From the NCBI GenBank assembly GCA_018664485.1, contig JABJOE010000005.1:15581-79580 (forward strand): a stretch of DNA of 64,000 nucleotides, read 5' to 3'. Under the pieces are notes generated by a model. The model saw nothing but the letters and a program-made list of their open reading frames with translations, ran no database searches and had not been told where the DNA came from. This stretch comes from Candidatus Uhrbacteria bacterium. GTDB lineage: Bacteria > Patescibacteriota > Patescibacteriia > UBA9934. Below, in pieces: positions 7,875-41,563 of this stretch; the stretch's first letter is position 1, and each line of letters starts with the position of its first letter. The translations under genes were made by a program, and so were the position numbers.

Positions 7875-8417
7875 TTACTCGTATACTCGCGTCATGACCA
7901 ATTCCCCTACAATGAGGTGGTCGCCGTAGACCTCATGGTCAAGTACCCAGAGCTCGCCTCTGATCGAGGAGAGGTCCAAGTCGTCGGACGATCCGTCAAA
8001 TCGGAGGTTGAACCGGTGTTTTCCTTTTTGCAAGGTCAAGTCGATCTGTACCTCTACCATCCCGTCGTCTGGGCAGTAGACAGCTCGCTCAATCTCGCGC
8101 AGGCACATCACCGTTTCATCAAGGCCGTACTGAGTACACCCGAGGTCTTCTCCCCGGATCTCTCCCCAGTATTGCACCCAGTCGCCATATGCCCCGGTTT
8201 CGGGACTCGGCTCTGTTGCGTAGCTGAGTTGAAAACCTACACCTTCTTTGGTGCCCTGCCACTGGTCGGTTCTATTGTCTCCAACATTTACCGACGGAAG
8301 ATCGGTTGGCCGTTCTGTACAGTTGTCTGACAATGCCAGCCTATCGGGAGCCTGACAGCCAATGTACAGCCCGGCGGTTAGGGGTACAAGCCCCCTAACC
8401 AACCGGTGGAAATTCAT
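7875..8417 (-). CDS. secreted hypothetical protein (signal peptide, several Cys; GC-rich island)
   Basis: N-terminal hydrophobic leader LVPLTAGLYIGC; no known domain. Confidence 0.5.
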   Translation of the reverse strand: MNFHRLVRGLVPLTAGLYIGCQAPDRLALSDNCTERPTDLPSVNVGDNRTDQWQGTKEGVGFQLSYATEPSPETGAYGDWVQYWGEIRGEDLGCTQYGLDETVMCLREIERAVYCPDDGMVEVQIDLTLQKGKHRFNLRFDGSSDDLDLSSIRGELWVLDHEVYGDHLIVGELVMTRVYE

Positions 8418-8419
8418 CG

Positions 8420-8965
8420 CTACCAGCCACCGCTGCCAGCACCACCTCGGTACGTACCGCTACCCGCGGTACTGCGTTCCGCGACGTCGCAGCTCAACGA
8501 GTAGTTGTCGTAGGTGTAGCCCTCGGGGTCGACTTCTTCTTCCAGGCGGACGCGAATCGTCGCGTCCAGCCTGTCGCCGCTATAGCCGCGGCCAGTACAC
8601 CAGGTTTCGTCTTCATCGTCTGGGTCGCCAGACTCGGGGTACTCATCGAACCAGAGCGCACCGTGCACGGACTCGCTGAAGGTCACGCCATCTGGGACGC
8701 AGATGCCCGCGAACGCGTTGCCGTTGGGCAGGTTCGTGGGGTCATCCGAGTCCTCAAGCCAGTCGAAGAAGATCTCTTCGCCGAGGTTCGTGACGTTCAA
8801 CGTAGAGCTGGTTCCATGGAACAGTACAGGGTCGATGTCCACGACCAAGCGGAGGTGGTACTGACCTTCGCATTGGCGAGGGCTCTTTTCGGTACAATCC
8901 GACATGGTGGTGAGGAGGGCGAAAGAAAGGACAGAGGCGGTACCGTTCATCAGTTTTATCTCCAC
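8420..8965 (-). CDS. secreted hypothetical protein (signal peptide, acidic, Gly/Ser-rich C-terminus; GC-rich island)
   Basis: N-terminal signal-like SVLSFALLTTMSDC; adjacent to 7875..8417 in same orientation. Confidence 0.5.
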   Translation of the reverse strand: MEIKLMNGTASVLSFALLTTMSDCTEKSPRQCEGQYHLRLVVDIDPVLFHGTSSTLNVTNLGEEIFFDWLEDSDDPTNLPNGNAFAGICVPDGVTFSESVHGALWFDEYPESGDPDDEDETWCTGRGYSGDRLDATIRVRLEEEVDPEGYTYDNYSLSCDVAERSTAGSGTYRGGAGSGGW

Positions 8966-9085
8966 TGATGATTTGGATAGTCGGCCGGTATGTCTCCAAT
9001 CCGGAGGCGACTATCAATAACTTAACCACTACTACCTAGGCAAAACGCTTCGGTACACAGGTGGATTAGAACCACAAGCAGTGGG

Positions 9086-9114
9086 AACTTACGCTAATAT
9101 TGGCCTTTTGTCAA
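9086..9114 (-). promoter_or_regulatory. promoter TTGACAAAAG-N13-TAAGTT (minus strand)
   Basis: complement of 9109-9114 = TTGACA, 17-nt spacer. Confidence 0.4.
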
Positions 9115-9259
9115 GGGTACTATGGGTTGCTGCAAGTAAAAGCGCCTCGTGTGTTAAAGGGTTACATTCGTTATAAAGAAAAGGCAGTGATTAGATTCTT
9201 ATTTTTGAAAAACAAGAGCGCACCCGACGAGACGGCAACGCCAGATGGCTCTTGCTGTC

Positions 9260-9640
9260 TCACACAGATGCGCGAGGCGTAAAGATGTATTCGGGTTTTG
9301 GTTCCTCACCGTCTTTACCTTTTTTGCAGATGAGTGAGGCTTGAACATGGAGTTCTTCGCCATCGTCGCGACGAATGAATACGTAGACTGCCTCCTCGTA
9401 GTCGTCGGACGAATGCACTGGCATTTTCGTAGCGTCAGTGATACGGAGTACATCGACCTCTTCGTACTCGCCAGTTTCTTGATTGAAGTAGCGGGCACGG
9501 ACACCTTGGCAGAGCCCATGACGTGCTAAATCCCTTCCTGCTTCCACCACAGGTTCCCACATGGTTATGTAGGGTGGTTTTTCAGGACGCTGCGCCCTTG
9601 GTCTTCTGTCGTTTACGATAGGTGTATTGTGGTCAAGCAT
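9260..9640 (-). CDS. hypothetical protein (GC-rich island)
   Basis: 126-aa ORF; minus-strand TTGACAATAAAG-N-TAGTCT promoter ~40 nt upstream. Confidence 0.45.
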   Translation of the reverse strand: MLDHNTPIVNDRRPRAQRPEKPPYITMWEPVVEAGRDLARHGLCQGVRARYFNQETGEYEEVDVLRITDATKMPVHSSDDYEEAVYVFIRRDDGEELHVQASLICKKGKDGEEPKPEYIFTPRASV

Positions 9641-21220: not shown

Positions 21221-21271
21221 TTGTGATCAGGCTATGTTTTGTAGTTTTTAGGCGTGGTATACTTCTGTCAT

Positions 21272-22135
21272 ATGAAAGTTTTAAAGGCAAATGGAAAGTG
21301 GGTTGAATTTGATGAGAGTAAAGCTCGCACAAGTATTTTGCGTACCGGTGTAGACGACGCAGAAGCTAGTTCTGTTTTAAAGGTTCTTAAGTCCCGCATG
21401 AAGAGTGGGATGTCGACCAAAGAGGTGTATGCCATTATTCATCAGGAATTAAAAAAGGTAAGCGTTTGTTTCTCTTGCCGCTACAGTCTTCGTGATGCAT
21501 TACAAAAATTGGGGCCAGCAGGATACAAGTTTGAAAAGTATGTTGCATCGATTTTGCGAGCTCATAAATACGACGCTTACGTTCCGGATCAGGATTTGGA
21601 AGGTTCCTGCGTTGATCATGAAGTGGATGTTATTGCAGAAAAAGATGGGAGAAAGATTTTTATTGAAGCAAAATTCCGTAACAACAATCGTAACTACGTG
21701 AATTTAAAAGACACGATGGCTACGTGGTCACGGTTCTTGGATCTCGTCGATGGGGCCGCTGTCGGTAAATGTGTGCACTTTGACGAGTGTTGGATCGTTA
21801 CAAATGCGCGTTTCTCAGATCGTGCTCGCACATTTGGAGTCTGCAAGGGTATCCACATGATAGGTTGGAGCTTTCCACCAGAAAGGTCATTTCAGAAAAT
21901 GGTTGATATTGTATCTCTGTACCCTGTAACCGTTCTAGATTCGATAACACAAAAAGAGCTCGAGGCTCTTTCTCATCAGAGACTGATGCTTTGTAAGGAG
22001 GTTGTAGAAGTTGATTCAGTGGACTTGGCACAAAGGTTAGACGTATCTAATAGTCGTGCCACGGAGTTGATAGGTCAATGTGTTACCGTCATTGAAGGCG
22101 GTAGTAAAAGTAAGAAAAAAAGAACCGGCCGTTAA
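21272..22135 (+). CDS. ATP-cone domain fused to PD-(D/E)xK (Mrr/restriction-endonuclease-like) nuclease domain
   Basis: N-terminal ATP-cone-like MKVLKANGKWVEFDESKARTSILRTG; central DHEVDVIAEK...IFIEAKFR D-(x)n-E-x-K motif. Confidence 0.55.
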   Translation: MKVLKANGKWVEFDESKARTSILRTGVDDAEASSVLKVLKSRMKSGMSTKEVYAIIHQELKKVSVCFSCRYSLRDALQKLGPAGYKFEKYVASILRAHKYDAYVPDQDLEGSCVDHEVDVIAEKDGRKIFIEAKFRNNNRNYVNLKDTMATWSRFLDLVDGAAVGKCVHFDECWIVTNARFSDRARTFGVCKGIHMIGWSFPPERSFQKMVDIVSLYPVTVLDSITQKELEALSHQRLMLCKEVVEVDSVDLAQRLDVSNSRATELIGQCVTVIEGGSKSKKKRTGR

Positions 22136-29870: not shown

Positions 29871-32800
29871 ATGACTCATAAATTAAAACAAAATTTCTTC
29901 CGTATTCTACCGATTTGGGTAGCGGGATGTTTGATTCTTTCAACGGCACTTATGTTCTGGGGAGGAATTAGTACACAAGACGCGAGTGCCGCAGCCCTCG
30001 GATCACCAAATGTAGAGCCTGCAACATTGGTTGCTGGTGCGACTGGAACAGCAACAATCACATTTACGACAACGACGACTATTCCAGCTGACGGAAAAAT
30101 TAAAGTTACCTTCCCGTCTGGATTTGACGTTACAGGTGCTACTGCTGGAGCGTGTCCTTCTATGGACGGTAACTTCGCTACCGCGATTGACGGTCAAGAG
30201 GTTACTCTTACTCGATCAACTGGAAACCCTGAAACGGCAAATGTAGAGTCGTGTACTATCGATGGAATTGTTAACCCACTCTATGCTGGGTCGACAGGAG
30301 TATACGGAATCGAAACTACTAACGGATCAGATGTGCAGGCTGATGTTGACGCGGCAGTTTCCGCTGACACTATCGTCGCAACTGATGCTGCTGCGACTAT
30401 CGTAGTTGCTGCTCCAACAGTTGGTGCTGCTGGCGACGTAACTGTTACATTGACACCGAACCTTGCAACGGACGCAGATGATACGCTAGACATTACTTTC
30501 CCTGCTTTCATGAATGTATCAAGCGTAGCCTCTGCGGTTACTGGTACTTTGGAAAACGGTGGAGAGATTACTTGTGCAGATGCTGGATCACAGGTCGTTA
30601 CCTGTACAGTTATCTCAGGAACTCCGCTCACAGCGAGTTCTACGATCATCATGACTGGAATTACTTCCTATTATGTAGGATCAACCGACGTGACTCTTCT
30701 GGAAATTGAAGACGAAGGAGTCGCTGCAAACGATATTGCAACAGATACGTCTGTCGCTATGACGGACATCACGGCCGCAGATGCTGCAGCGAGCGTGGCT
30801 CTCGGAGCTGCAACTGTTGGTGCTACTGGCGATGTTACCCTTACATTGACTTCAACTGTTCAGTTGGACGCAGATGACACAATTGACGTTACTTTCCCCG
30901 CGTACATGAATGTATCAAGTGTAGCCTCTGCGGTTACTGGTACATTTGAGAACGGAGGTGAGATTACTTGTGCAGACGCTGGATCACAGGTTGTTACCTG
31001 TACTGTTATCTCAGGAGCTCCACTACTATCAAGTGGAACAATCGTTATGACAGGAATCACTTCCTACTATGTGGGAACTACAGATATTACCTCTCTGGAA
31101 ATTGAAGACGAAGGATCTGCTTCAAACGACATTGCAACAGATACTTCCACAGCTCTTACAGACATTACTGCAGCCGATGCTGCTGCGACTATCGTAGTTG
31201 CCACTCCAACAGTTGGTGGAGTAGGTACAGTAACGGTTACCTTGACTCCAACTGTTCAGTTGGATGCAGATGACACATTGGACATTACTTTCCCTGCTTT
31301 CATCGATGTATCAAGCGTAGCCTCTGCGGTTACCGGTACTTTGGAGAACGGTGGTGAGATTACTTGTGCAGATGCTGGATCACAGGTTGTGACTTGTACA
31401 GTTATCTCAGGATCTCCACTATTATCGAGTGGAACGATCATCATGACTGGAATTTCATCTCTATATATAGGGTCAACGGACGTCACAGTGTTGGAGATTG
31501 AAGATGAAGGAGCTTCCGCAAACGATATTGCGACAGATACTTCCACAGCTCTTACAGACATTACTGCAGCCGATGCTGCTGCGACTATCGTAGTTGCTGC
31601 TCCAACAGTTGGTGGAGTTGGTGACGTAACTGTTACATTGACAACGACTGTTGCGACGGATGCAGACGACACATTGGACATTACTTTCCCAGCTTTCATG
31701 GACATATCAAGCGTAGCCTCTGCGGTTACCGGTACTTTGGAGAACGGAGGTGAGATTACTTGTGTAGATGCTGGATCACAGGTTGTTACTTGTACAGTTA
31801 TCTCAGGATCTCCACTATTATCGAGTGGAACGATCATCATGACAGGAATCACTTCCGACTATGCAGGATCAACTAATGTTACAACTTTTGCAGTTGAAGA
31901 TGAAGGTGTCGGTGCAAACGATATTGCTGCAGACAGTGATGTAGCTTTGACAGATATTACGGCAGCAGACGCTGCTGCAAGTATCGTTGTTGCTACTCCA
32001 ACAGTTGGTGGAGTAGGTACAGTGACTGTTACTTTGACCACTACTGTTGCTACAGACGCGGACGACACATTGGACATTGCTTTCCCAGCTTTCATGGACA
32101 TATCAAGCGTAGCCTCTGCGGTTACTGGTACATTTGAGAACTCTGGAGAGATTACTTGTGCAGATGCTGGATCACAGGTCGTTACCTGTACAGTTATCTC
32201 AGGATCTCCACTACTTACAAGTTCTACGATCATCATGACAGGAATCACTTCCGACTATGTAGGATCAACTAATGTTACAGCTTTCGCAGTTGAAGATGAA
32301 GGTGTCGGTGCAAATGACATTGCTGCAGACAGTGATGTAGCTTTGACAGATATTACTGCAGCAGACGCTGCTGCGACCGTAGTCGTTGCAACTCCAACCG
32401 TTGGTGGTGTAGGTACCGTAACCGTTACCTTGACTACAACTGTTGCATTGGACGCGGATGATACGATCGACATCACATTCCCTAACCAAATGGACGTTGG
32501 AGCAGTTGCATCAGCTGTTACTGGTACTTTGGAGAATGGAGGTGAGATTACTTGTGCAGATTCCGCTCAGGTTGTGACTTGTACTGTTATCTCAGGATCT
32601 CCACTACTAACAAGTGCCACGATCATCATGACGGGAATTACTTCTTACAATGCTGGGTCAACAGACATTACTACCTTCGAAATTGAGGACGAAGGGGTGG
32701 CTGCAAATGACATTGCAACTGATAGTGCTGTAGCATTGACAGACATCACTGCGGCGGCATTGACATCAACAAACGTGCAGCCATCAACGACGATCGTTGG

Positions 32801-33995
32801 TCAAACACAAACAAATACAATTAGTTTTACAACAGTGTCAACTATTGTTGCTACTGGAAAGATTGTTATAACGTATCCGGCAGGATTCGACGTATCTGGA
32901 GCAGTTTCTGGAACATGTAGTTCAATGGATGGTTCATTCGCTACGGCGGTTGCAAGTCAGGTTGTGACAATCACTAGAAGCGGAGGTGGGTCGCAGACGG
33001 GTGCTGCTGAAACATGTACAGTTGCCGGAATCGTTAACCCAACAGTGGCTGGATCGGCAGGTACGTATACGATTACAACGACTACAGCGAGTGACGTTGA
33101 GCTTGATACTGATGCGGCCGTAGCGGCGGACACTTTCCAGGCTGCTTCATCCGGAGGAGGCGGAGGAGGTGGAGGATCTTCATCAAGTAGTTCAGATGAC
33201 GACGAAGATGAAGACGAGGATGCTGTAGAGGTAGAAGAAGGCGATGACTCTACAACGTCTTACGAGGTTGGAACTCCAACAGCATTGAGCGTCGGAGACG
33301 CTGAGCATACAGTTACTGTTATCGAAGCAACAGAAGATGAATGTACTCTAACGGTTGAGTCTGACCCAGTTACAGTCACTGTGCAGACTGGTGAGTCAGA
33401 AGACATCGACACAGATGGAGACGGAATCGATGATCTACGAGTTACATATGACGGATTAGACGACGAAGGAGACGCTGAGCTTACATTCACAGAGCTAGAA
33501 GTTTCTCTGGAGTGCGAGATGCCAAGCGGTGACGACATTACAACCGTAGAAGCTGGAGACTTCATTAAGAGCGATAGTTTCTCAGCAGTTTACTATGTGA
33601 CATCTGACTGTGGACGACGAGTCTTCATGGACGAAAAGACTTACTTCACATGGCAGGATGATTACGACAATCTAGTAGAAGTAACAGATGAAACACTTTC
33701 TGAACTTTCACTTGATGGAGTAATGCTTCCAAAGGCAGGTACTGTTCTTGTAAAGATTCAGTCTGATCCGAAGGTTTATGCCCTAGGAGCTGGATCAACT
33801 TACAGCCCTGACTTGCAGTGGGTAAGTGACGAAGATGTTGCAATTGATCTCTTCGGAGATGATTGGGCAGACTACGTGATCGACATTGAGCCAACATTCT
33901 TCAACAAGTTTGGAGTAGGTGACGACATCGAAAGTGCAGAAGACTTCGATGCAGACATCGACGATATGAAGAAACGAGTTGACCTCGCAAGCTAG
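29871..33995 (+). CDS. giant (1374 aa) Thr/Ala/Val-rich cell-surface repeat protein with N-terminal signal/TM, six ~132-aa tandem repeats, poly-Gly/Ser/Asp/Glu linker and acidic C-terminal domain
   Basis: Repeat unit A(A/T)PTVG..G.VTVTLT....DADDTLDITFPAFM.VSSVASAVTGTLENGGEITCADAGSQVVTCTVISG x6; related N- and C-proximal domains. Confidence 0.8.
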   Translation: MTHKLKQNFFRILPIWVAGCLILSTALMFWGGISTQDASAAALGSPNVEPATLVAGATGTATITFTTTTTIPADGKIKVTFPSGFDVTGATAGACPSMDGNFATAIDGQEVTLTRSTGNPETANVESCTIDGIVNPLYAGSTGVYGIETTNGSDVQADVDAAVSADTIVATDAAATIVVAAPTVGAAGDVTVTLTPNLATDADDTLDITFPAFMNVSSVASAVTGTLENGGEITCADAGSQVVTCTVISGTPLTASSTIIMTGITSYYVGSTDVTLLEIEDEGVAANDIATDTSVAMTDITAADAAASVALGAATVGATGDVTLTLTSTVQLDADDTIDVTFPAYMNVSSVASAVTGTFENGGEITCADAGSQVVTCTVISGAPLLSSGTIVMTGITSYYVGTTDITSLEIEDEGSASNDIATDTSTALTDITAADAAATIVVATPTVGGVGTVTVTLTPTVQLDADDTLDITFPAFIDVSSVASAVTGTLENGGEITCADAGSQVVTCTVISGSPLLSSGTIIMTGISSLYIGSTDVTVLEIEDEGASANDIATDTSTALTDITAADAAATIVVAAPTVGGVGDVTVTLTTTVATDADDTLDITFPAFMDISSVASAVTGTLENGGEITCVDAGSQVVTCTVISGSPLLSSGTIIMTGITSDYAGSTNVTTFAVEDEGVGANDIAADSDVALTDITAADAAASIVVATPTVGGVGTVTVTLTTTVATDADDTLDIAFPAFMDISSVASAVTGTFENSGEITCADAGSQVVTCTVISGSPLLTSSTIIMTGITSDYVGSTNVTAFAVEDEGVGANDIAADSDVALTDITAADAAATVVVATPTVGGVGTVTVTLTTTVALDADDTIDITFPNQMDVGAVASAVTGTLENGGEITCADSAQVVTCTVISGSPLLTSATIIMTGITSYNAGSTDITTFEIEDEGVAANDIATDSAVALTDITAAALTSTNVQPSTTIVGQTQTNTISFTTVSTIVATGKIVITYPAGFDVSGAVSGTCSSMDGSFATAVASQVVTITRSGGGSQTGAAETCTVAGIVNPTVAGSAGTYTITTTTASDVELDTDAAVAADTFQAASSGGGGGGGGSSSSSSDDDEDEDEDAVEVEEGDDSTTSYEVGTPTALSVGDAEHTVTVIEATEDECTLTVESDPVTVTVQTGESEDIDTDGDGIDDLRVTYDGLDDEGDAELTFTELEVSLECEMPSGDDITTVEAGDFIKSDSFSAVYYVTSDCGRRVFMDEKTYFTWQDDYDNLVEVTDETLSELSLDGVMLPKAGTVLVKIQSDPKVYALGAGSTYSPDLQWVSDEDVAIDLFGDDWADYVIDIEPTFFNKFGVGDDIESAEDFDADIDDMKKRVDLAS
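30381..32757 (+). repeat. six tandem ~396-bp coding repeats inside the giant surface protein gene
   Basis: near-identical nucleotide blocks (e.g. gcctctgcggttac[ct]ggtac repeated each ~396 bp). Confidence 0.8.
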
Positions 33996-34005
33996 AATAT
34001 AAAAA

Positions 34006-34038
34006 TCACCTCCGGCGAAAGCTGGGGGTGTTTTTGTT
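34006..34038 (+). terminator. rho-independent terminator CACCTCCGGC-GAAA-GCTGGGGGTG + T5
   Basis: 10-bp stem, GNRA loop, TTTTTGTTTG. Confidence 0.75.
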
Positions 34039-34074: not shown

Positions 34075-35199
34075 ATGTTTGAACTGAAAAATACAACAGG
34101 GCGTGCTCGTAGTGGAGTGGTTCGTACCGCACATGGCAGCATGCAGACACCGTTTTTCATGCCTATAGCGACAAAGGGGGCTGTGAAGACTTTGGCGGCG
34201 TCTGAGGTGCAAGATTTGGGTGCACAAATTATTCTATCCAACACATATCATCTTTTATTGCGACCTGGGTCAGATGGTATGAAGAAGTTGGGTGGCCTAC
34301 ATAAGCTGATGCATTGGGATGGGCCGATTTTGACCGACAGTGGTGGCTACCAGGTATTCAGTCTTTCAAAGCTCAACAAAACAACTGAAGACGGTGTTTC
34401 GTTTCAGTCGCATATTGATGGCACAAAAATAACCCTCACACCCGAGGGTTCTATGGCTATGCAGTCGGTAATTGGGGCTGACATTATTATGCAGTTCGAT
34501 GACGTTGCAGCCGGAGACTCCACGCGCAAGCGTTATAAAGAGGCGATGGAGCTTTCACTACGTTGGGCACAGCGATGTAAAGATAGTTACGATGAAAAGC
34601 AGCAGTTGTTTGCAATTGTTCAGGGTGGTACTCACGAAGACCTACGTGAAGAATCAGCGAAAGGACTAATCAAAATTGGTTTTGACGGATATGCAATTGG
34701 TGGACTTTCCGTTGGAGAAAGTCGAGATGATGCTTTTCGTATTGCGAAGAGAGTTTGTGAAATCCTGCCAGCTGACAAACCTCGCTACTTCATGGGTGGT
34801 GGTATGCCCGAGGAGATTGTCTACTACGTAAGTATTGGTGTGGATATGTTTGACTGCGTGTTACCAACGCGCAATGCAAGACATGGAACATTATTTTTGT
34901 GGAAGCAGGATCCGAAAGAGGCGGTACGTGAAGCGTTGATGTTAGCGCAAGATGGAGCTGCAGACACTCGTATTGCAGAGGCTCTTTACCAAAAAATTCA
35001 GATAACACGATCAACTTTCGAGTTTGATCAGTCCCCAATTGATAAGCTTAACGATACGGTTTCGACTTCATCTACATACACCAAAGCGTATCTCAGACAT
35101 CTTCTTAAAACTGACGAGATGCTTGGGTACAGACTTGCCACACAACAAAACCTTGGTTTTTATTTCCGACTAATGAAAGAGCTGCGATCTCTGTTATAA
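34075..35199 (+). CDS. tgt: tRNA-guanine transglycosylase (queuine tRNA-ribosyltransferase) lacking the C-terminal zinc-binding Cys cluster
   Basis: Full-length Tgt similarity (GRARSGVVRTAHGSMQTPFFMPIATKGAVKTL, QGGT, GYAIGGLSVGE); where CxCxxC...H normally sits the sequence reads STSSTYTKAYLRHL. Confidence 0.85.
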   Translation: MFELKNTTGRARSGVVRTAHGSMQTPFFMPIATKGAVKTLAASEVQDLGAQIILSNTYHLLLRPGSDGMKKLGGLHKLMHWDGPILTDSGGYQVFSLSKLNKTTEDGVSFQSHIDGTKITLTPEGSMAMQSVIGADIIMQFDDVAAGDSTRKRYKEAMELSLRWAQRCKDSYDEKQQLFAIVQGGTHEDLREESAKGLIKIGFDGYAIGGLSVGESRDDAFRIAKRVCEILPADKPRYFMGGGMPEEIVYYVSIGVDMFDCVLPTRNARHGTLFLWKQDPKEAVREALMLAQDGAADTRIAEALYQKIQITRSTFEFDQSPIDKLNDTVSTSSTYTKAYLRHLLKTDEMLGYRLATQQNLGFYFRLMKELRSLL

Positions 35200-35206
35200 T
35201 AGATTC

Positions 35207-35578
35207 ATGTCTACCTTTGTTTTAGGTCTACGATATTTTTTCATTGATTTAGTTGGCGGTGTTATTCGCTGGCCTGTTTGGTGGTATACCAAGGGGCTGG
35301 CTTTTATGGTGCAAATGGCTATCGGTACTTTGAGTGGGTACTCGCGAACGCTTGCTATTCGAGTGTGGGTGAAGAATATCTTTGTGCCGATGTTTGGAAT
35401 GTATGATTGGCAGAGTAGGATCATTAGTTTCTTCATGCGTGTTGCGCAAATTATCGGACGTTCCATCGCAATGTTGGTTATGTTTATTTTGGCAATCGTA
35501 GCGCTTGCATTATATGTTGTAATTTTGCCAATTACGGTTGGGCTGGTTGTTTATAATTTTACCGGTGCGTTAATTTAG
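35207..35578 (+). CDS. hypothetical multi-TM membrane protein
   Basis: 123-aa hydrophobic ORF. Confidence 0.5.
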   Translation: MSTFVLGLRYFFIDLVGGVIRWPVWWYTKGLAFMVQMAIGTLSGYSRTLAIRVWVKNIFVPMFGMYDWQSRIISFFMRVAQIIGRSIAMLVMFILAIVALALYVVILPITVGLVVYNFTGALI

Positions 35579-35599: not shown

Positions 35600-38284
35600 A
35601 TGTCTAACTTGATAGGACAACTCGACGCAATACCTCCACAGAATGCTTCGGTTATTGAACCGGAGTCTCAGGATGGATACGCGGGGCTTGTGATAGAAGG
35701 GAAGTTTTGGCATTGGGATGAACCGATGTCTGAACCTGCCATTGCACTTCGTAAAATTCGCGATAAGGTTCAAAAGGCTATCAATGTTGCTGTAGCGGCG
35801 TTGGCTCTGGGGGCTGTGGCTTTGTTTGCGCTGATCCTCACATTTACAGAAGATAAAGCAGAAGCTATCACTCTTGAATATTGGGTTTCGCCTAATTTTG
35901 CATCGTTTGCGGTGTGGTCGGTTTTACTTTGTGTTCTTTTCCTTTTTTACCGTGTACAAGACAAGAAGTTGCGCGTGAAAACTATTCCAGAGCACAAAAA
36001 AGGGCCGGTATCGGAAGTACAGATGATTCCATCACTAGATGGCGTTGGTAAGAAGGAGAATATCGCAAACGTATTAACGGCAGACGCACGTGTATCGTTA
36101 GAAGAGGCGTATCAGCTTGCAAGGCAAAGTGGTCAAGCAGAGGTCGAAGCTATCCATATTTACTTAGGTTTACTTTCGAGCCCACCGGTGAGTCTGCTCT
36201 TTATGCGTCTGGGTGTGACGTTTGAGCAAATGAAAGGTGCATTGCGCCGTCGTTTAGCAACATTGCCAAAGGGTGATGCGAATTTCGGTTTGCCAGCACA
36301 TACTGTGGTCACAGAGGCTTTGCGTAATGCAGTTGAGCACGAGCGACCTCAGCTAAGTGCGATTGAACTATTTATTGAGTCATATAATGCTGATGAGTTT
36401 TTGCAGGAACTGATGTTCTCACTCGAGGTAGAAAAGCAGGAGTTGGAGAACGCTGTTATGTGGATTCGTATTAACGAGCAGTTGCAAGAGCGATACAAAG
36501 CATTCCGAGAAGCTGCGTCTTTCAAGCCGTCAAAGAACATGAACCGTTCTTATACCGCTGTAGCTACTCCGTTTTTAGATAAAGTTTCAAAAGATCTAAC
36601 TCGATCTGCCGTAATGGGTCGTTTGCCGATGTTGATTGGACGTGACCGGGAGATAACTGGAATCATGCGCGCAATTGAGGGTGGAAATAAGAGCGTTGTG
36701 CTTGTCGGGCCCCACGGTGTTGGAAAAGATGCCGTTGTTGCCGGAATTGCACAGCTGATGGTTGAGGAAAAAGTTCCAAAGATTCTGCAAGATAAGCGAT
36801 TAGTCAGTTTGTCGATCCCGCACATTGTAAGCGCGCAGGGTGGTGCAGGTGCTGAGGAGCGATTGCTATTTGCATTGCAAGAAATTGGCCGATCAGGAAA
36901 TATCGTTACAGTAATTGAAAACATCGATCAGATTGTTGGTTCGTCAGGTGGTGTGGATCTTTCATCTGTTCTGTCTTCGGAATTGGAGAAGGGTTATACA
37001 TTCGTTATTGGAACGTCGACTCCTCAAGGGTATACAGGTCTGATTGAGAAATCTATTTTAGGACAGCGTTTGGAAAAGATTATTATTGATGAACCTGAAC
37101 GCAATGATGCGATCATGGTTTTGGAGTCCAAGATTGGCGGCGTTGAGAATAAAAATAAAGTTGTTTTCACATATCCGTCAGTCGCGGCGTTGATTGATCT
37201 TTCAACTCGCTACATGCATGAGAGCTATTTGCCGGAGAAAGCGATTACTTTAGCGCAGGAGGTTGCAAACTCAGTTGCGAGGCGTGGAAAGGAATGGGCT
37301 CGTGTGATGCCGGAAGATGTAGCAGCTATTATTTCTGAAAAAACAAAGATTCCTATCACGCAGGTTGGGAAAGAAGAGGGTCAGAAGCTTTTGAACTTGG
37401 AAGACCGGATGCATGAGCGGATTATCGGTCAGGATGAGGCTGTGAAGGCCGTAGCGTCAGCCCTACGACGTGCGCGTGTTGAATTGCGCTCGAAGGATCG
37501 TCCTATTGCAAACTTCCTATTCCTTGGACCTACTGGTGTGGGTAAGACGGAGCTCGCAAAGACGACTGCGGAAGTGTATTTCGGGTCAGACACGAATATG
37601 CTTCGCTTTGATATGTCTGAGTACCAAGACAAGACGTCAATTGCCAGATTGATTGGTGCCGCAGGTGAGAGTGGACTTCTAACAGAAGCTGTTAGGCAGA
37701 ATCCGTTTGCTCTCCTATTGCTCGATGAGTTGGAAAAAGCTCATCCAGACATTCTAAACTTGTTCTTGCAGGTTATGGATGATGGTCGATTGACAGATGG
37801 CTCAGGGCGTACGATTGATTTTACAAATGTAATTTTGATTTCTACGTCTAATGCTGGAACACAATACATTCAAGATGCTGTGACGGAAGGTGTTGATGTA
37901 GTTGAGATGCGTGAGCATTTGATGAATAACGAATTGAAAAAGGTATATCGTCCTGAGTTCCTCAACCGTTTTGATGGTGTGATGGTCTTCAAGCCGTTGT
38001 CACAAGAAGATGTGGTTGCTATCGCATACTTGATGATCGATAAAGTTGGTAAGCGTTTGGAGGCTAAGGGAATTTCATTCCGTGCTTCAGATGAGGCGGT
38101 GCACGAGCTTGCTGTGAAGGGTTATGATCCTAAATTTGGTGCGCGTCCTTTGCGTCGTGTAATTCAAGACACGGTTGATAATTCTATTGCTGAGTTCTTG
38201 CTTCAAGGAAAGGTTGGTCGCCGCGATACTCTTGTACTCGCACCCGGTGGTGAGATTCAGGTTGAAAAAGCCGCCGAACTTTAG
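35600..38284 (+). CDS. membrane-anchored ClpC/ClpB-like AAA+ ATPase with degenerate D1 (GPHGVGKD, VIENID) and intact D2
   Basis: Two N-terminal TM helices, Clp_N-like repeat, D1 Walker A K-D instead of K-T/S and Walker B E-N instead of D-E; D2 LFLGPTGVGKTELAKT, LLLLDELEKAH, sensor-2 GARPLRR. Confidence 0.75.
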   Translation: MSNLIGQLDAIPPQNASVIEPESQDGYAGLVIEGKFWHWDEPMSEPAIALRKIRDKVQKAINVAVAALALGAVALFALILTFTEDKAEAITLEYWVSPNFASFAVWSVLLCVLFLFYRVQDKKLRVKTIPEHKKGPVSEVQMIPSLDGVGKKENIANVLTADARVSLEEAYQLARQSGQAEVEAIHIYLGLLSSPPVSLLFMRLGVTFEQMKGALRRRLATLPKGDANFGLPAHTVVTEALRNAVEHERPQLSAIELFIESYNADEFLQELMFSLEVEKQELENAVMWIRINEQLQERYKAFREAASFKPSKNMNRSYTAVATPFLDKVSKDLTRSAVMGRLPMLIGRDREITGIMRAIEGGNKSVVLVGPHGVGKDAVVAGIAQLMVEEKVPKILQDKRLVSLSIPHIVSAQGGAGAEERLLFALQEIGRSGNIVTVIENIDQIVGSSGGVDLSSVLSSELEKGYTFVIGTSTPQGYTGLIEKSILGQRLEKIIIDEPERNDAIMVLESKIGGVENKNKVVFTYPSVAALIDLSTRYMHESYLPEKAITLAQEVANSVARRGKEWARVMPEDVAAIISEKTKIPITQVGKEEGQKLLNLEDRMHERIIGQDEAVKAVASALRRARVELRSKDRPIANFLFLGPTGVGKTELAKTTAEVYFGSDTNMLRFDMSEYQDKTSIARLIGAAGESGLLTEAVRQNPFALLLLDELEKAHPDILNLFLQVMDDGRLTDGSGRTIDFTNVILISTSNAGTQYIQDAVTEGVDVVEMREHLMNNELKKVYRPEFLNRFDGVMVFKPLSQEDVVAIAYLMIDKVGKRLEAKGISFRASDEAVHELAVKGYDPKFGARPLRRVIQDTVDNSIAEFLLQGKVGRRDTLVLAPGGEIQVEKAAEL

Positions 38285-38360: not shown

Positions 38361-38984
38361 TTAGGGTCTCGGTACTCTCATCGGAGAGGGCACCGGAATA
38401 TTAGATGTGACGAGGCAGAACTTTATATGGTCTGCGGCGCTCATGAGGATCATCATGTACAGGTCATGCCATGGATGATTGCGGTCCAAGATCAGAGCAG
38501 GAAAGAGCTTGTACAGATCCATGTCAGCATCTTTCCCGTGCTCAACGGTGTGAGCTATGATTACGGGTTTTACTGTCGGGTTGAAGGTGTCGACGTGTAT
38601 TAACCGCATGAGCATGTCGATGAGCTTCTTGTGTACGCTCTTCAGCCTTCCCCCGAGTGTACCAATCAAGGCTCTGAGCGTGTCCTGATCTCCACCTCGG
38701 GCAACGGTGAGTCCTGACTCGTCGATACTGAGGGTGTATTCTCCGGGCTTGAGTTTCGCATGTGGCAGAAGCGAATCTCTTGTAAAGTCGTGTAGGAACA
38801 TACTCTCCTCGCTGCACCCAGGAGCATTCATTTTCAGTTCTGCGGACTCATCGTCGCTGATTGTCACGGTGAGCGTGAGCACTACATGCTTCTCACTAGC
38901 TAGACCGTAGGCACGGCGCTCATTGTCATCCATGTACCGAAGGATACTCATCGGCAGATCTACGAAGGGGAAGAGGTTGGGCAT
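38361..38984 (-). CDS. hypothetical protein, paralog of 39181..39924 (GC-rich island)
   Basis: shares KPGEYTL/TPGTYTL and NHPWHDL/KDPWHEL blocks with neighbour. Confidence 0.5.
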   Translation of the reverse strand: MPNLFPFVDLPMSILRYMDDNERRAYGLASEKHVVLTLTVTISDDESAELKMNAPGCSEESMFLHDFTRDSLLPHAKLKPGEYTLSIDESGLTVARGGDQDTLRALIGTLGGRLKSVHKKLIDMLMRLIHVDTFNPTVKPVIIAHTVEHGKDADMDLYKLFPALILDRNHPWHDLYMMILMSAADHIKFCLVTSNIPVPSPMRVPRP

Positions 38985-39180: not shown

Positions 39181-39924
39181 TCACTCGGTCGGTGTAAGCT
39201 CATCGCGGATCGCCGCGATGCGCGCGTCCATCGAAGCGAGGGTGCTGCCGATGACGGTGTCGCGGTGGGTGCTCAAAGCCTGTTGAGCCGCAGCGGTCAT
39301 GAGGGCCTTCTCCAACTCGTGCCAGGGATCTTTGTGGCTGCTCACCGTGTAGATGGCCAGTGGGCCCGACGAGCTCGGTACATCTCCCGAAATTCGGATG
39401 TCCAGGCCCATGTCGCGACTCGAGAGCTCGCGGATCATGTCAATCGCGATTCGACAGGGGCAAGCGGCATTGGGCTCTGGGATGGAGATGTCGGTACCGG
39501 AGGTCGCCATGCGGAGCACATGCTTCGCCAGGAGAACAATCATTGCCTCCTCGACGGATTCCCAGTGGATCATGGCGCCGAGCATGCCCTCGAGGTCGGT
39601 GAGGGGGGCATGGAGATCACGACGGACCGCTTGAAAGAGGCGCTCGGCCGTACGATCATCGGGACCCGACCTCTCGGTGCTCTCAAAGGTCTGGAATTGT
39701 AGGGTGTATGTTCCGGGTGTCAGGTCCTCCAGGTCGTTGATACTTCCCACAAGGGTTTCACGCCACATGTCACCGAGTCTGCCGGTGGGGTTGGGGCTCA
39801 TGGTGAGGGACGGGTCACCCTCGCCGATCTCGACGGCAAGCGTCATGACGGGCTCTTCGGGGTTGGTGAATCCGATATCTACAGTGAGTGGTCCGGGGGT
39901 AAGGGCAGCAAGAATGTGCTTCAC
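39181..39924 (-). CDS. hypothetical protein, paralog of 38361..38984 (GC-rich island)
   Basis: 247-aa ORF; promoter TTGACAAAAA ~45 nt upstream. Confidence 0.5.
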   Translation of the reverse strand: MKHILAALTPGPLTVDIGFTNPEEPVMTLAVEIGEGDPSLTMSPNPTGRLGDMWRETLVGSINDLEDLTPGTYTLQFQTFESTERSGPDDRTAERLFQAVRRDLHAPLTDLEGMLGAMIHWESVEEAMIVLLAKHVLRMATSGTDISIPEPNAACPCRIAIDMIRELSSRDMGLDIRISGDVPSSSGPLAIYTVSSHKDPWHELEKALMTAAAQQALSTHRDTVIGSTLASMDARIAAIRDELTPTE

Positions 39925-40028: not shown

Positions 40029-41054
40029 ATGGCTATCTGGTGGATCTATCCAATTATCGCAAGTTTTCTCTTATCTCTTCTACTGAGCGACGTTGGTCGT
40101 AGTTTTGGGCGAAGGTTAGGTTTTTTGGATCGACCTGCAAAACCCCGCAAGCAACATAAGGGAGGGATTTCAACATTAGGTGGCGTCGCTGTCTTCATAG
40201 CTTTTTCAATTGTCGTCCTTGCTGTGCTATTGATGACCGATCATTTTACATTAGGTGAGATATCTCATAACCATTTCATTGGATTTCTCATCGGAGGTTT
40301 TGTGTTGATTGTCGGCGGTTTAGTTGATGACAGATATGATCTTGCACCGAAGTATTCCATTTTGTTTCCAGTAGCCGCGGCGCTCTTAGCTGCAGGTTTT
40401 GGTATAGGAGTGTCTAAGATTACAAATCCTCTCGGTGGTTTTTTTGAGATTAGTGAATTGTTATCATTTATTGTTACCTTTTTATGGTTACTTGGTGTGA
40501 TGTATACAACTAAGCTCCTCGACGGCCTAGACGGTCTTGCAGGAGGCGTGAGTGCCATTGGAATGCTTATTGTAGCTTCGCTTGCTCTGAGCGTTGCGTT
40601 CTATCAGCCTGACGTTGCATTGCTCGCACTTATCGGCTGCGCGGCACTAGTAGGATTTCTTGTATGGAATACTCATCCGGCTTCATTATTCCTGGGTGAA
40701 GGGGGAAGCACACTGGTTGGATACATGCTCGCAGTTATGGCTGTGATAGCAGGGTCTAAGATAGCGACAACATTACTAGTCGTTGCAATCCCACTTTTTG
40801 ATATTATATTCGTTGTTTGGGATCGAAAGATGGCGGGCCACTCGGTAACAAAAGGAGATCGTCGTCATCTGCATCAACGTCTTCGTGATAGCGGTTGGTC
40901 AATTCAGAAAGTAGTTTGGTTTTATTATATTGTCGCTTTAGCTTTCGGGCTTACTACGCTTATCTTTGAAAGTTGGCAGAAGTTAGTTGCTCTCGTGGTG
41001 TTGTTCGCGATAACTTTCATTGTCATCCGTGCCGTTTCAATTAAGAAAGTATGA
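40029..41054 (+). CDS. polyprenyl-phosphate N-acetylhexosamine-1-phosphate transferase (WecA/TagO/MraY family, GT4)
   Basis: LVDDRYDL (DDxxD), FLGEGGSTLVGYML, 10-11 TM helices. Confidence 0.8.
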   Translation: MAIWWIYPIIASFLLSLLLSDVGRSFGRRLGFLDRPAKPRKQHKGGISTLGGVAVFIAFSIVVLAVLLMTDHFTLGEISHNHFIGFLIGGFVLIVGGLVDDRYDLAPKYSILFPVAAALLAAGFGIGVSKITNPLGGFFEISELLSFIVTFLWLLGVMYTTKLLDGLDGLAGGVSAIGMLIVASLALSVAFYQPDVALLALIGCAALVGFLVWNTHPASLFLGEGGSTLVGYMLAVMAVIAGSKIATTLLVVAIPLFDIIFVVWDRKMAGHSVTKGDRRHLHQRLRDSGWSIQKVVWFYYIVALAFGLTTLIFESWQKLVALVVLFAITFIVIRAVSIKKV

Positions 41055-41563
41055 CTCGCCCAATCGATTCTGTTTTAGCTCTCGGTGACCTCATAGTAAA
41101 TTTCATTGTGCTAGCTGCCTATTATGTGGGAGTGATTTTTGGATCAGTTGCTTCGATTGCTCCGAGTATCGTTGCAGATGACTTTAACTTTGATACTATT
41201 GCGGTTAAGGATGCCTCGCTCAATGTATGGATCGCAAAAAGTGATACAGAGCAGAGAAACGGACTTTCTTTTTTTGAAATGCATCAGTTGGAATCTCGAA
41301 ACATTGATGGAATGCTATTTGTATACGAAGATAGTTCTGTAGCAAATTTTTGGATGCGCGGGATGCAATTTGATTTAGATTTTGTTTGGATTAAAAGTGG
41401 GGAAGTCGTAAAGATTGATGAGAATATTTTATCTCCCGCAAATAACAATGGTGATACGATGACAATTTCGTCGGATCCGTATGAGGTAGGTGCTGTTTTA
41501 GAGTTGCCAGCAGGGCAGGTAGATACTTTAGATATCAAAGTCGGAGATAGCGTTGAATTTTAA
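41051..41563 (+). CDS. DUF192 (COG1430) domain protein
   Basis: WIAKSDTEQRNGL...GMLFVY...FWMRGMQFDLDFVWI...VLELPAG pattern. Confidence 0.7.
   Translation: MTRPIDSVLALGDLIVNFIVLAAYYVGVIFGSVASIAPSIVADDFNFDTIAVKDASLNVWIAKSDTEQRNGLSFFEMHQLESRNIDGMLFVYEDSSVANFWMRGMQFDLDFVWIKSGEVVKIDENILSPANNNGDTMTISSDPYEVGAVLELPAGQVDTLDIKVGDSVEF

Follow-up and report, generated by a model that had tools for sequence, protein, structure and literature searches.

A Clp-like gene and its small upstream partner

The DNA analyzed here, a stretch of 64,000 nucleotides (nt) from contig JABJOE010000005.1 of a Candidatus Uhrbacteria bacterium (the window, within which all coordinates are given), carries an intact gene for an 894-residue protein related to the Clp/Hsp100 AAA+ ATPases, with a gene for a small membrane protein of 123 amino acids (aa), here called tm123, just ahead of it (Table 1). 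Hsp100/Clp proteins are, by textbook description, soluble threading machines. An earlier note on this DNA had read the Clp-like protein as membrane anchored, with two transmembrane (TM) helices before a Clp_N-like domain, an inactivated first ATPase module (D1), and a canonical second one (D2), and had suggested a membrane-tethered disaggregase or unfoldase with a single active ring. The open reading frame (ORF), hydropathy, and a structural model bear out the anchored architecture, and the comparisons below place the protein in a widespread, uncharacterized, and misannotated Hsp100 subfamily with a dedicated partner.

Table 1. Features of the Clp-like gene, its partner, and conserved neighboring genes (nucleotide positions within the window unless residues are given).
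Feature	Position	Strand	Details and basis
tgt (queuine tRNA-ribosyltransferase)	34075..35199	+	Pfam TGT, E 6.6e-134; stop 7 nt before tm123 start
tm123, 123-aa small membrane protein	35207..35578	+	Stop 21 nt before Clp-like ATG; C-terminal hydrophobic hairpin
Clp-like class I Hsp100 AAA+ gene, membrane anchored	35600..38284	+	ATG 35600, TAG 38284; 894 aa, intact
Cytoplasmic N-terminal beta-hairpin motif GLVIEGKFWHWD	35684..35719	+	Family consensus GxPGVLxxGxFWxW; alignments
TM helix 1	35780..35848	+	Residues 61-83; hydropathy, AF2, conservation
Short acidic loop between TM helices	residues 84-99	+	Conserved (Y/F)WxxP; predicted outside
TM helix 2	35897..35950	+	Residues 100-117; hydropathy, AF2
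Clp_N-like N-domain	36077..36520	+	Residues ~160-307; eight helices in AF2; ClpA model aligns from 163
D1 AAA+ module, degenerate (pseudo-ATPase)	36632..37297	+	Alignment to ClpC D1, family statistics
D1 Walker A GPHGVGKD	36707..36730	+	Residues 370-377; Lys present, Mg-binding Thr/Ser replaced by Asp
D1 pore-loop position	36830..36862	+	SAQGGAGAEER replaces ..AGxKYRGEFEER (KYR to GGA); no aromatic
D1 Walker B VTVIENID	36905..36928	+	VIENID, residues 438-443; E-N replaces D-E, catalytic Glu lost
D2 AAA+ module, catalytic site intact	37397..37990	+	Pfam AAA_2, family statistics
D2 Walker A GPTGVGKT	37526..37549	+	Residues 643-650
D2 pore-loop remnant GAAGESGLLTE	37655..37687	+	ClpC equivalent GAPPGYVGHDDGGQLTE; six-residue deletion including the GYVG tyrosine; HMMER alignment
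D2 Walker B LLLLDELEKAH	37712..37744	+	DELEKAH, residues 709-715
Position of ClpP-docking (I/L/V)-G-(F/L) loop	37859..37900	+	Short, without the tripeptide
ClpB_D2-small domain	37997..38230	+	Pfam; contains sensor-2 GAR at 38138-38146
WecA/TagO-like polyprenyl-phosphate GlcNAc-1-P transferase (Glycos_transf_4, GT4)	40029..41054	+	Pfam PF00953
DUF192 gene	41051..41563	+	Pfam PF02643; overlaps GT4 stop codon

By fold, the Clp-like protein is a genuine but divergent class I Hsp100, because Pfam, the alignment to the ClpA model, and structural matches to ClpC and ClpB agree. The hidden Markov model searches that the earlier note had proposed recovered AAA_lid_9 at residues 502 to 566, AAA_2 at residues 634 to 792 (E 1.5e-52), and ClpB_D2-small at residues 800 to 877 (E 1.6e-22); a single Clp_N repeat at residues 170 to 216 scored 19.7 bits, just below the cutoff of 20.7, and PF02861 is precomputed on most homologs. 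The tandem arrangement of a classic-clade D1 and an AAA_2-type D2 followed by ClpB_D2-small is thus that of class I. The NCBIfam ClpA model (TIGR02639) gave one alignment over residues 163 to 872 (473.5 bits; cutoff, 993), and the ClpB model (TIGR03346) matched in two separate stretches totaling 530 bits (cutoff, 1232). With the ClpB, ClpK, ClpG, and ClpV models also far under their cutoffs, the protein scores half or less of every NCBIfam equivalog cutoff. The nearest solved structures in a PDB sequence search were Staphylococcus aureus ClpC, Bacillus subtilis ClpC, and Escherichia coli ClpB. A single-chain AlphaFold (AF2) model built with 50 homologs as input had a mean predicted local distance difference test (pLDDT) score of 82 and matched ClpC, ClpC1, and ClpB chains in Foldseek with E values of ~1e-55 to 1e-42 and TM-scores of 0.75 to 0.84 over D1-D2.

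Three kinds of evidence, namely, hydropathy, the AF2 model, and family conservation, support a two-helix anchor. Kyte-Doolittle hydropathy exceeds 1.6 at residues ~57 to 85 and ~95 to 121, with its maximum (2.65) in the first segment, and AF2 helices spanning residues 45 to 82 and 100 to 125 cover both segments at pLDDT near 90. Hydrophobic segments occupy the matching position in 116/116 close relatives (52 to 83% identity) and lie within the first 220 residues in 71 of 72 distant clusters; these two sets, 188 in total, also underlie the residue statistics for D1 and D2 given below. Net charge is +1 ahead of the hairpin, −3 in its loop of ~15 residues, and +4 behind it, a balance that fits a hairpin with both termini predicted to be inside and the acidic loop outside. 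The hydrophobic segments might have been a signal peptide or the product of a wrong start codon, as the earlier note had recognized. A signal peptide is rejected because the TM helices begin about 60 residues from the N terminus, and the start codon is upheld because the residues preceding the helices are conserved in relatives; the start is also tightly coupled to the upstream stop.

Ahead of the anchor lies a short motif at which AF2 places strands at residues 27 to 32 and 35 to 38. Among the distant clusters, 49/72 (e.g., P0217, P0252, P0258, and P0327) carry two CxxCxGxG motifs within the N-terminal 40 residues, so that a zinc finger precedes both the GxPGVLxxGxFWxW hairpin and the membrane hairpin. 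Its best Pfam match was DnaJ_CXXCXGXG (E 4e-5 to 3e-3, under the threshold), with Anti-TRAP and BSD2_CRD next. In the clade of the window protein, all four cysteines have been lost, and the hairpin that follows them has been kept.

Among 5.8 billion proteins searched, 293 relatives of the Clp-like protein were found, and those with names are all labeled ClpC, ClpA, or “AAA family ATPase” and assigned to Patescibacteria or Candidatus Uhrbacteria. When the N-terminal 315 residues were used to query 1.84 billion cluster representatives, 176 clusters were recovered at E values of ≤1e-3, most of them 870 to 940 aa long. Because this query consists of the anchor and the N-domain, the anchored architecture itself defines a broad family, comprising no fewer than 176 clusters at 50% identity. 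Its members are spread across Patescibacteria, a point absent from the earlier note. Full-text searches of the literature turned up no account of a membrane-anchored or membrane-integral Hsp100 or of this Clp-like family; clp genes described in a paper on TM7x were set aside as not relevant, since they belong to the host and not to the Patescibacteria member.

The gene neighborhood, whose conservation the earlier note had proposed to check, revealed a pairing that it had not mentioned. The tm123 protein carries the invariant motifs PxWWYTKG, KNIFVPM(F/Y)G, and DWQSRIISF in homolog alignments, and its single-chain AF2 model (pLDDT 88) is all helical, with helices at residues 3 to 48, 51 to 63, and 68 to 122. 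It belongs to no family in Pfam, NCBIfam, or PADLOC, its model has no fold match in the PDB, and its 73 homologs are all hypothetical proteins of Patescibacteria. In 39 genome loci, retrieved by family-specific D1 patterns, tm123 immediately precedes the Clp-like gene at every locus that has upstream DNA, bar two gapped loci; the distance between the genes is usually −26 to +3 nt, with exceptions of 659 and 1250 nt. Even distant members with unrelated neighbors (DsbA and type IV secretion system [T4SS] pilins) have a tm123 homolog 1 to 3 nt upstream.

A reverse search, in which metagenome contigs were queried with the tm123 protein (80 loci), found a recognizable Clp-like gene just downstream of tm123 in 69/80. 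Five of the remaining loci have too little downstream DNA to judge, and the six apparent exceptions proved on inspection to encode the N-terminal hallmarks of the Clp-like family right after tm123, so that all 75 testable loci are paired (75/75). The one clade without tm123, represented by P0200 (L043, 5001..7694), has a D2 that is degenerate as well (GPNGVGKT, DDFEKA, GALP) and may be a fully inactivated offshoot. Because the pairing is near-universal in both directions and the sole clade lacking tm123 has a degenerate D2, the Clp-like gene and tm123 constitute an obligate two-gene module. One 1.7-kb metagenome contig (Ga0233437_1082034; L060, 1..186) encodes tm123 residues 62 to 123 at 100% identity and probably comes from the organism of the window or a near-identical one.

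Two AAA+ modules in unequal states

The unusual motifs that the earlier note had reported for D1 were located as described and aligned to S. aureus ClpC. The Walker A lysine position is K in 107/116 and R in 8/116 close relatives, and the position after it is unconstrained in the same set (G/D/A/E/Q/K/N/S and others). In Walker B, the D-E pair occurs in 0/116 close and 0/72 distant relatives (0/188); close relatives have EN (79/116) or ED (18/116) as the more common alternatives. The sensor-1 Thr is retained, and in place of the Arg-finger pair ERR, the window protein has GQR and most close relatives have (Q/P)K. Judged from these residues, D1 is unable to hydrolyze ATP by the normal route. 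Its pore loop carries no Y, F, or W in any close relative (0/116).

Had orthologs possessed a canonical D1, an error in the sequence or assembly would have become the simpler explanation. None was found, and a sequencing error behind the odd D1 is rejected on the strength of the 188 relatives without D-E. More generally, an odd D1 could reflect a wrong start, a frameshift, gene decay, or misassembly, but nothing was found in favor of such an origin. The ORF is intact, 293 homologs share its length and substitutions, the region ahead of the TM helices is conserved, D2 is strictly conserved, and the AF2 model is confident. The conservation data exclude an artifact.

D2, by contrast, is canonical, and is the only module that is. 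Besides the Walker A and B motifs, the sensor-1 residue N751, the Arg finger R790, and the sensor-2 GAR at residues 847 to 849 (R849) were all located, and the Walker A K/T, the Walker B DE, N751, R790, and R849 are conserved in 116/116 close relatives and in 70 to 72 of the 72 distant clusters (97 to 100%). Functional Walker A and B motifs are therefore present in one module of the two rather than in both, as class I proteins have them.

A change that the earlier note had not recognized is that the pore-loop tyrosines are missing from both rings of the window protein. Neither the D1 tyrosine (KYRG) nor that of D2 (GYVG) has a counterpart. Compared with the ClpC pore loop GAPPGYVGHDDGG, D2 lacks “PGYV” and the subsequent “HD” and is left with “GAAGESG”; both loops are rich in Gly, Ser, and Glu. 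Of the 117 close relatives counted for the D2 loop, 115 have no aromatic residue in it. An APPG(Y/F) loop is kept in a minority of distant clusters and in the close relative P0039 (59% identity; 930 aa), which is the only close relative with a canonical ClpB-like D2 pore loop (SPPGYVGYEEGGQLTE); this loop has either been retained from the ancestor or been acquired by recombination.

Characterized Hsp100 proteins need their pore-loop tyrosines for translocation, and substitution of the Tyr abolishes translocation of the substrate. A canonical threading unfoldase is therefore unlikely in the clade of the window protein, on present alignments. Of the function proposed in the earlier note, the membrane tether and the single active ring stand, and the label “disaggregase or unfoldase” is not supported in that form, given the absence of aromatic pore loops from both rings.

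The same alignments bear on coupling to a protease. As the earlier note had stated, no ClpP-binding tripeptide, IGF-like motif, or M-domain is evident: the ClpP-docking loop is deleted, with “QRFAGFG” of S. aureus ClpC facing a gap of 7 residues, in a segment that is uniformly short across the 188 relatives. That the protein is nonetheless the ATPase partner of a ClpP protease, i.e., an unfoldase of the ClpA/ClpC/ClpE type, is very improbable. ClpC proteins are its best PDB sequence matches, and the N-terminal zinc finger of distant members recalls those of ClpE and ClpX; this finger is of the DnaJ CxxCxGxG type, however, not the ClpX type, the window protein is without it, and the docking loop is deleted. 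Both the missing ClpP loop and the TIGR02639 score separate the protein from ClpA, ClpC, and ClpE, and its sequence suggests that it is probably not coupled to ClpP. Because the loop is missing, the database label “ClpC/ClpA ATP-binding subunit of Clp protease” is misleading.

Could the protein instead be a general cytosolic chaperone of the ClpB/ClpC type (a disaggregase) that is merely tethered to the membrane, its neighbor gene being incidental? Such a role would suit the public annotation as ClpC or ClpA, and no second Clp-type gene was found in the window or in 46 scanned loci, which span small parts of genomes only. Residue alignment to S. aureus ClpC and the NCBIfam ClpB model, however, revealed no M-domain segment that could provide coupling to DnaK, and the absence of this domain, like the TIGR03346 score, sets the protein apart from ClpB. 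It has no pore-loop tyrosines, it misses all NCBIfam equivalog cutoffs by a factor of at least 2, and its pairing with tm123 is near-universal and translationally coupled even where other neighbors differ. We consider a general chaperone improbable.

The wider gene neighborhood

Downstream of the Clp-like gene, the GT4 and DUF192 genes follow in 27/39 genome loci and 21/31 metagenome loci, frequently with overlapping stop and start codons. The GT4 protein of the window scored 101 bits against the NCBIfam wecA model and 61 bits against mraY, both below the cutoff. One metagenome-assembled genome encodes the Clp-like protein and GT4 as an in-frame fusion of 1231 aa (P0227; L046, 4240..7935; contig CAYXZR010000015.1), which omits exactly the first TM helix of the transferase, so that the topology stays consistent. 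No further fusion of this kind was found among the best 120 GT4 homologs, and the Rosetta-stone link to the glycosyltransferase was downgraded to weak evidence because P0227 is a singleton.

In the window, GT4 is parted from the Clp-like gene by two inserted ORFs on the opposite strand (38361..38984 and 39181..39924, both −; 207 and 247 aa), with a GC content of 0.54 compared to ~0.44 to 0.46. Their products belong to no Pfam, NCBIfam, or PADLOC family, and the ORFs are absent from all related loci. The two resemble each other as weak paralogs would (pairwise E 6e-4; common motifs PGxYTL and PWH(D/E)L), and a strong terminator-like hairpin (39112-39084, −) lies between them. The insert probably represents a small island that was acquired. 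Another GC-rich patch (0.52), at 7875..9640 (−), holds three ORFs of 180, 181, and 126 aa, which bear no resemblance to the other window ORFs with which they were compared.

Upstream, tgt is probably cotranscribed with the module. It is not a universal neighbor, being missing at L042 and L045 and in one subclade. A strong terminator-like hairpin (34007-34030) separates tgt from the ORF at 29871..33995 (+), which encodes a protein of 1374 aa. A hydrophobic segment at its N terminus is followed by ~7 tandem repeats of ~130 aa rich in T/A/V/D, a linker of poly-Gly/Ser/Asp/Glu, and a separate C-terminal domain. The protein has no significant Pfam match and is presumably surface located or S-layer-like.

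Other loci differ in their surroundings. At L040, L043, and L044, the module stands just after mraZ, rsmH, and a small gene of FtsL size, at the head of a division/cell-wall-type cluster, whereas the block upstream in the window contains uvrD, a UDP-glucose dehydrogenase gene, and the large repeat protein instead. In one distant clade (L042, 8823..9601; L045, 8162..8542), the module lies beside T4SS_pilin (TrbC/VirB2-like) and DsbA-like genes rather than tgt and GT4. Elsewhere in the window, the ORF at 21254..22135 (+) encodes a 293-aa protein with an unusual combination of an ATP-cone, an Mrr_cat restriction-endonuclease-like domain, and an AF1548-like C-terminal domain.

Membership of the module in a defense system was rejected. 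PADLOC gave only partial matches at the level of D2 (PDC-M37B and DolB) and none for tm123, and the context of the module is one of housekeeping synteny, not defense.

A proposed membrane-remodeling machine and its relation to known systems

We propose, at a probability of about 45%, that the Clp-like protein and tm123 form a two-component membrane-bound AAA+ machine that is specific to Patescibacteria and acts by Torsin-like remodeling rather than by threading. The Clp-like protein would form a hexamer, and its D1/N-domain face would look toward the membrane, because the N-domain and D1 come after the anchor. D1 would serve as a nonhydrolyzing assembly ring and D2 as the sole motor; inactive rings serve assembly in NSF, p97, and ClpA. 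The tm123 protein would be docked by the TM hairpin, by the FWxW beta-hairpin, or by both, and ATP hydrolysis in D2 would most likely drive a conformational or remodeling cycle on a membrane-embedded partner or client. Remodeling is favored over threading because the gripping loops are gone while the D2 ATPase site is invariant. The field of action could be cell-envelope glycopolymer biogenesis or membrane-protein maintenance, as suggested by the frequent operon link to the WecA/TagO-like enzyme.

The anchor and the single motor could also belong to a protein that threads, namely, an extractase or unfoldase of membrane proteins working in the manner of FtsH or Msp1 without a protease, with clients drawn from the membrane via the channel of D1 and D2, with nonaromatic loops, and with tm123 as adaptor or substrate receptor. 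The D1 entry face would be turned toward the membrane, as is the case for FtsH with its N-terminal TM anchors (PMC9775585). Conservation is strict at the D2 catalytic site and extends to the remnant loop, G-x-G-(E/Q)-x-G-L-(L/M)-T-E, and APPGY or APPGF loops persist in some family members. These points have to be set against pore loops that are rich in Gly, Ser, and Glu, with no aromatic or bulky residue in 115/117 close relatives, and a D2 loop that is six residues shorter; the effect of Tyr substitution on Hsp100 translocation in general argues in the same direction. An extractase is the main rival and is possible, if less likely than remodeling.

Several points weigh against the remodeling machine that we prefer. 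First, the hexamer, the contact with tm123, and the ATPase activity are all inferred from sequence. Second, the canonical D2 loop persists in P0039 and a minority of distant members, so threading is probably ancestral, and some threading with nonaromatic loops may persist. Third, D2 has its own Arg finger, unlike Torsin, and tm123 would therefore not be needed to complete the active site. Fourth, the adjacency of GT4 and DUF192 falls within a longer conserved housekeeping synteny (mraZ-rsmH...rplU-recR-dnaB) and is absent in some clades, and the only fusion is a singleton; the link to the envelope may be mere synteny.

The family is a natural experiment on what the Hsp100 mechanism can do without, since the gripping loops have been dismantled in most lineages and the D2 ATPase site has been kept. 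It also points to a membrane or envelope process, uncharacterized and probably important, in the Patescibacteria (candidate phyla radiation [CPR]), which are poorly understood and mostly uncultured. A more specific proposal is that the module is a bacterial counterpart of a Torsin and its cofactor, in which threading has been given up and D2 hydrolysis gates or remodels a membrane process, maybe the initiation of glycopolymer synthesis by the WecA/TagO-like enzyme. This proposal is distinctly doubtful; if true, it would make the protein the first Hsp100 integral to the membrane and a part of cell-envelope biology that defines the CPR lineage.

Among known systems, ClpC, ClpA, and ClpB are the closest in construction. 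They share with the Clp-like protein the same fold and the domain order of an N-domain (Clp_N-like in the Clp-like protein, with its near-threshold match), D1, D2, and D2-small. Its D2 shows ~40% identity, with all catalytic motifs present, and it resembles ClpA in having no M-domain and ClpB in having no ClpP loop. It differs from all three in its N-terminal membrane hairpin and obligate small membrane partner gene, in the D1 of the window protein, which is without the catalytic Glu, the Mg-binding Thr, and the Arg finger, and in two rings that have no pore-loop Tyr.

Two further likenesses are partial. Distant members have two CxxCxGxG motifs in common with the DnaJ zinc center, Anti-TRAP, and BSD2, but form a single zinc center with subthreshold Pfam scores. 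The plant proteins of the SMAX1/D53 type are, like the Clp-like protein, Hsp100-derived and double-module, and a SMAX1 chain (9kkx) was a weak PDB match (E 1.4e-9). Their ATPase and pore motifs have degenerated, and unfoldase action has been lost. Unlike the Clp-like protein, they are soluble nuclear regulators of eukaryotes with an EAR motif, no membrane anchor, and a D2 that is not strictly conserved.

FtsH resembles the Clp-like protein in the placement of its anchor, since its two N-terminal TM segments precede a cytoplasmic AAA+ ring that turns its entry face toward the membrane (PMC9775585). It combines one AAA module of the classic clade and its aromatic pore loop with a fused zinc protease, whereas the Clp-like protein has two Hsp100-type modules and neither an aromatic loop nor a protease domain.

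Torsins are membrane-associated relatives of Clp/Hsp100 through the D2 module; their pore loops are not aromatic, and they need membrane cofactors (PMC5425593). They differ from the Clp-like protein in having a single AAA+ module that receives its Arg finger from the cofactor; the Clp-like protein has two modules and its own D2 Arg finger, R790 being present in 116/116 close relatives. The partners differ as well, the Torsin cofactor being a degenerate AAA+ fold and tm123 a 123-aa helical protein. The resemblance appears to be a functional analogy only, and it lies in features. Like Torsin with LAP1 or LULL1 in the eukaryotic endoplasmic reticulum and nuclear envelope, the Clp-like protein associates with the membrane through an N-terminal hydrophobic segment (PMC5425593), has no aromatic pore loop, and is accompanied by a dedicated membrane partner.

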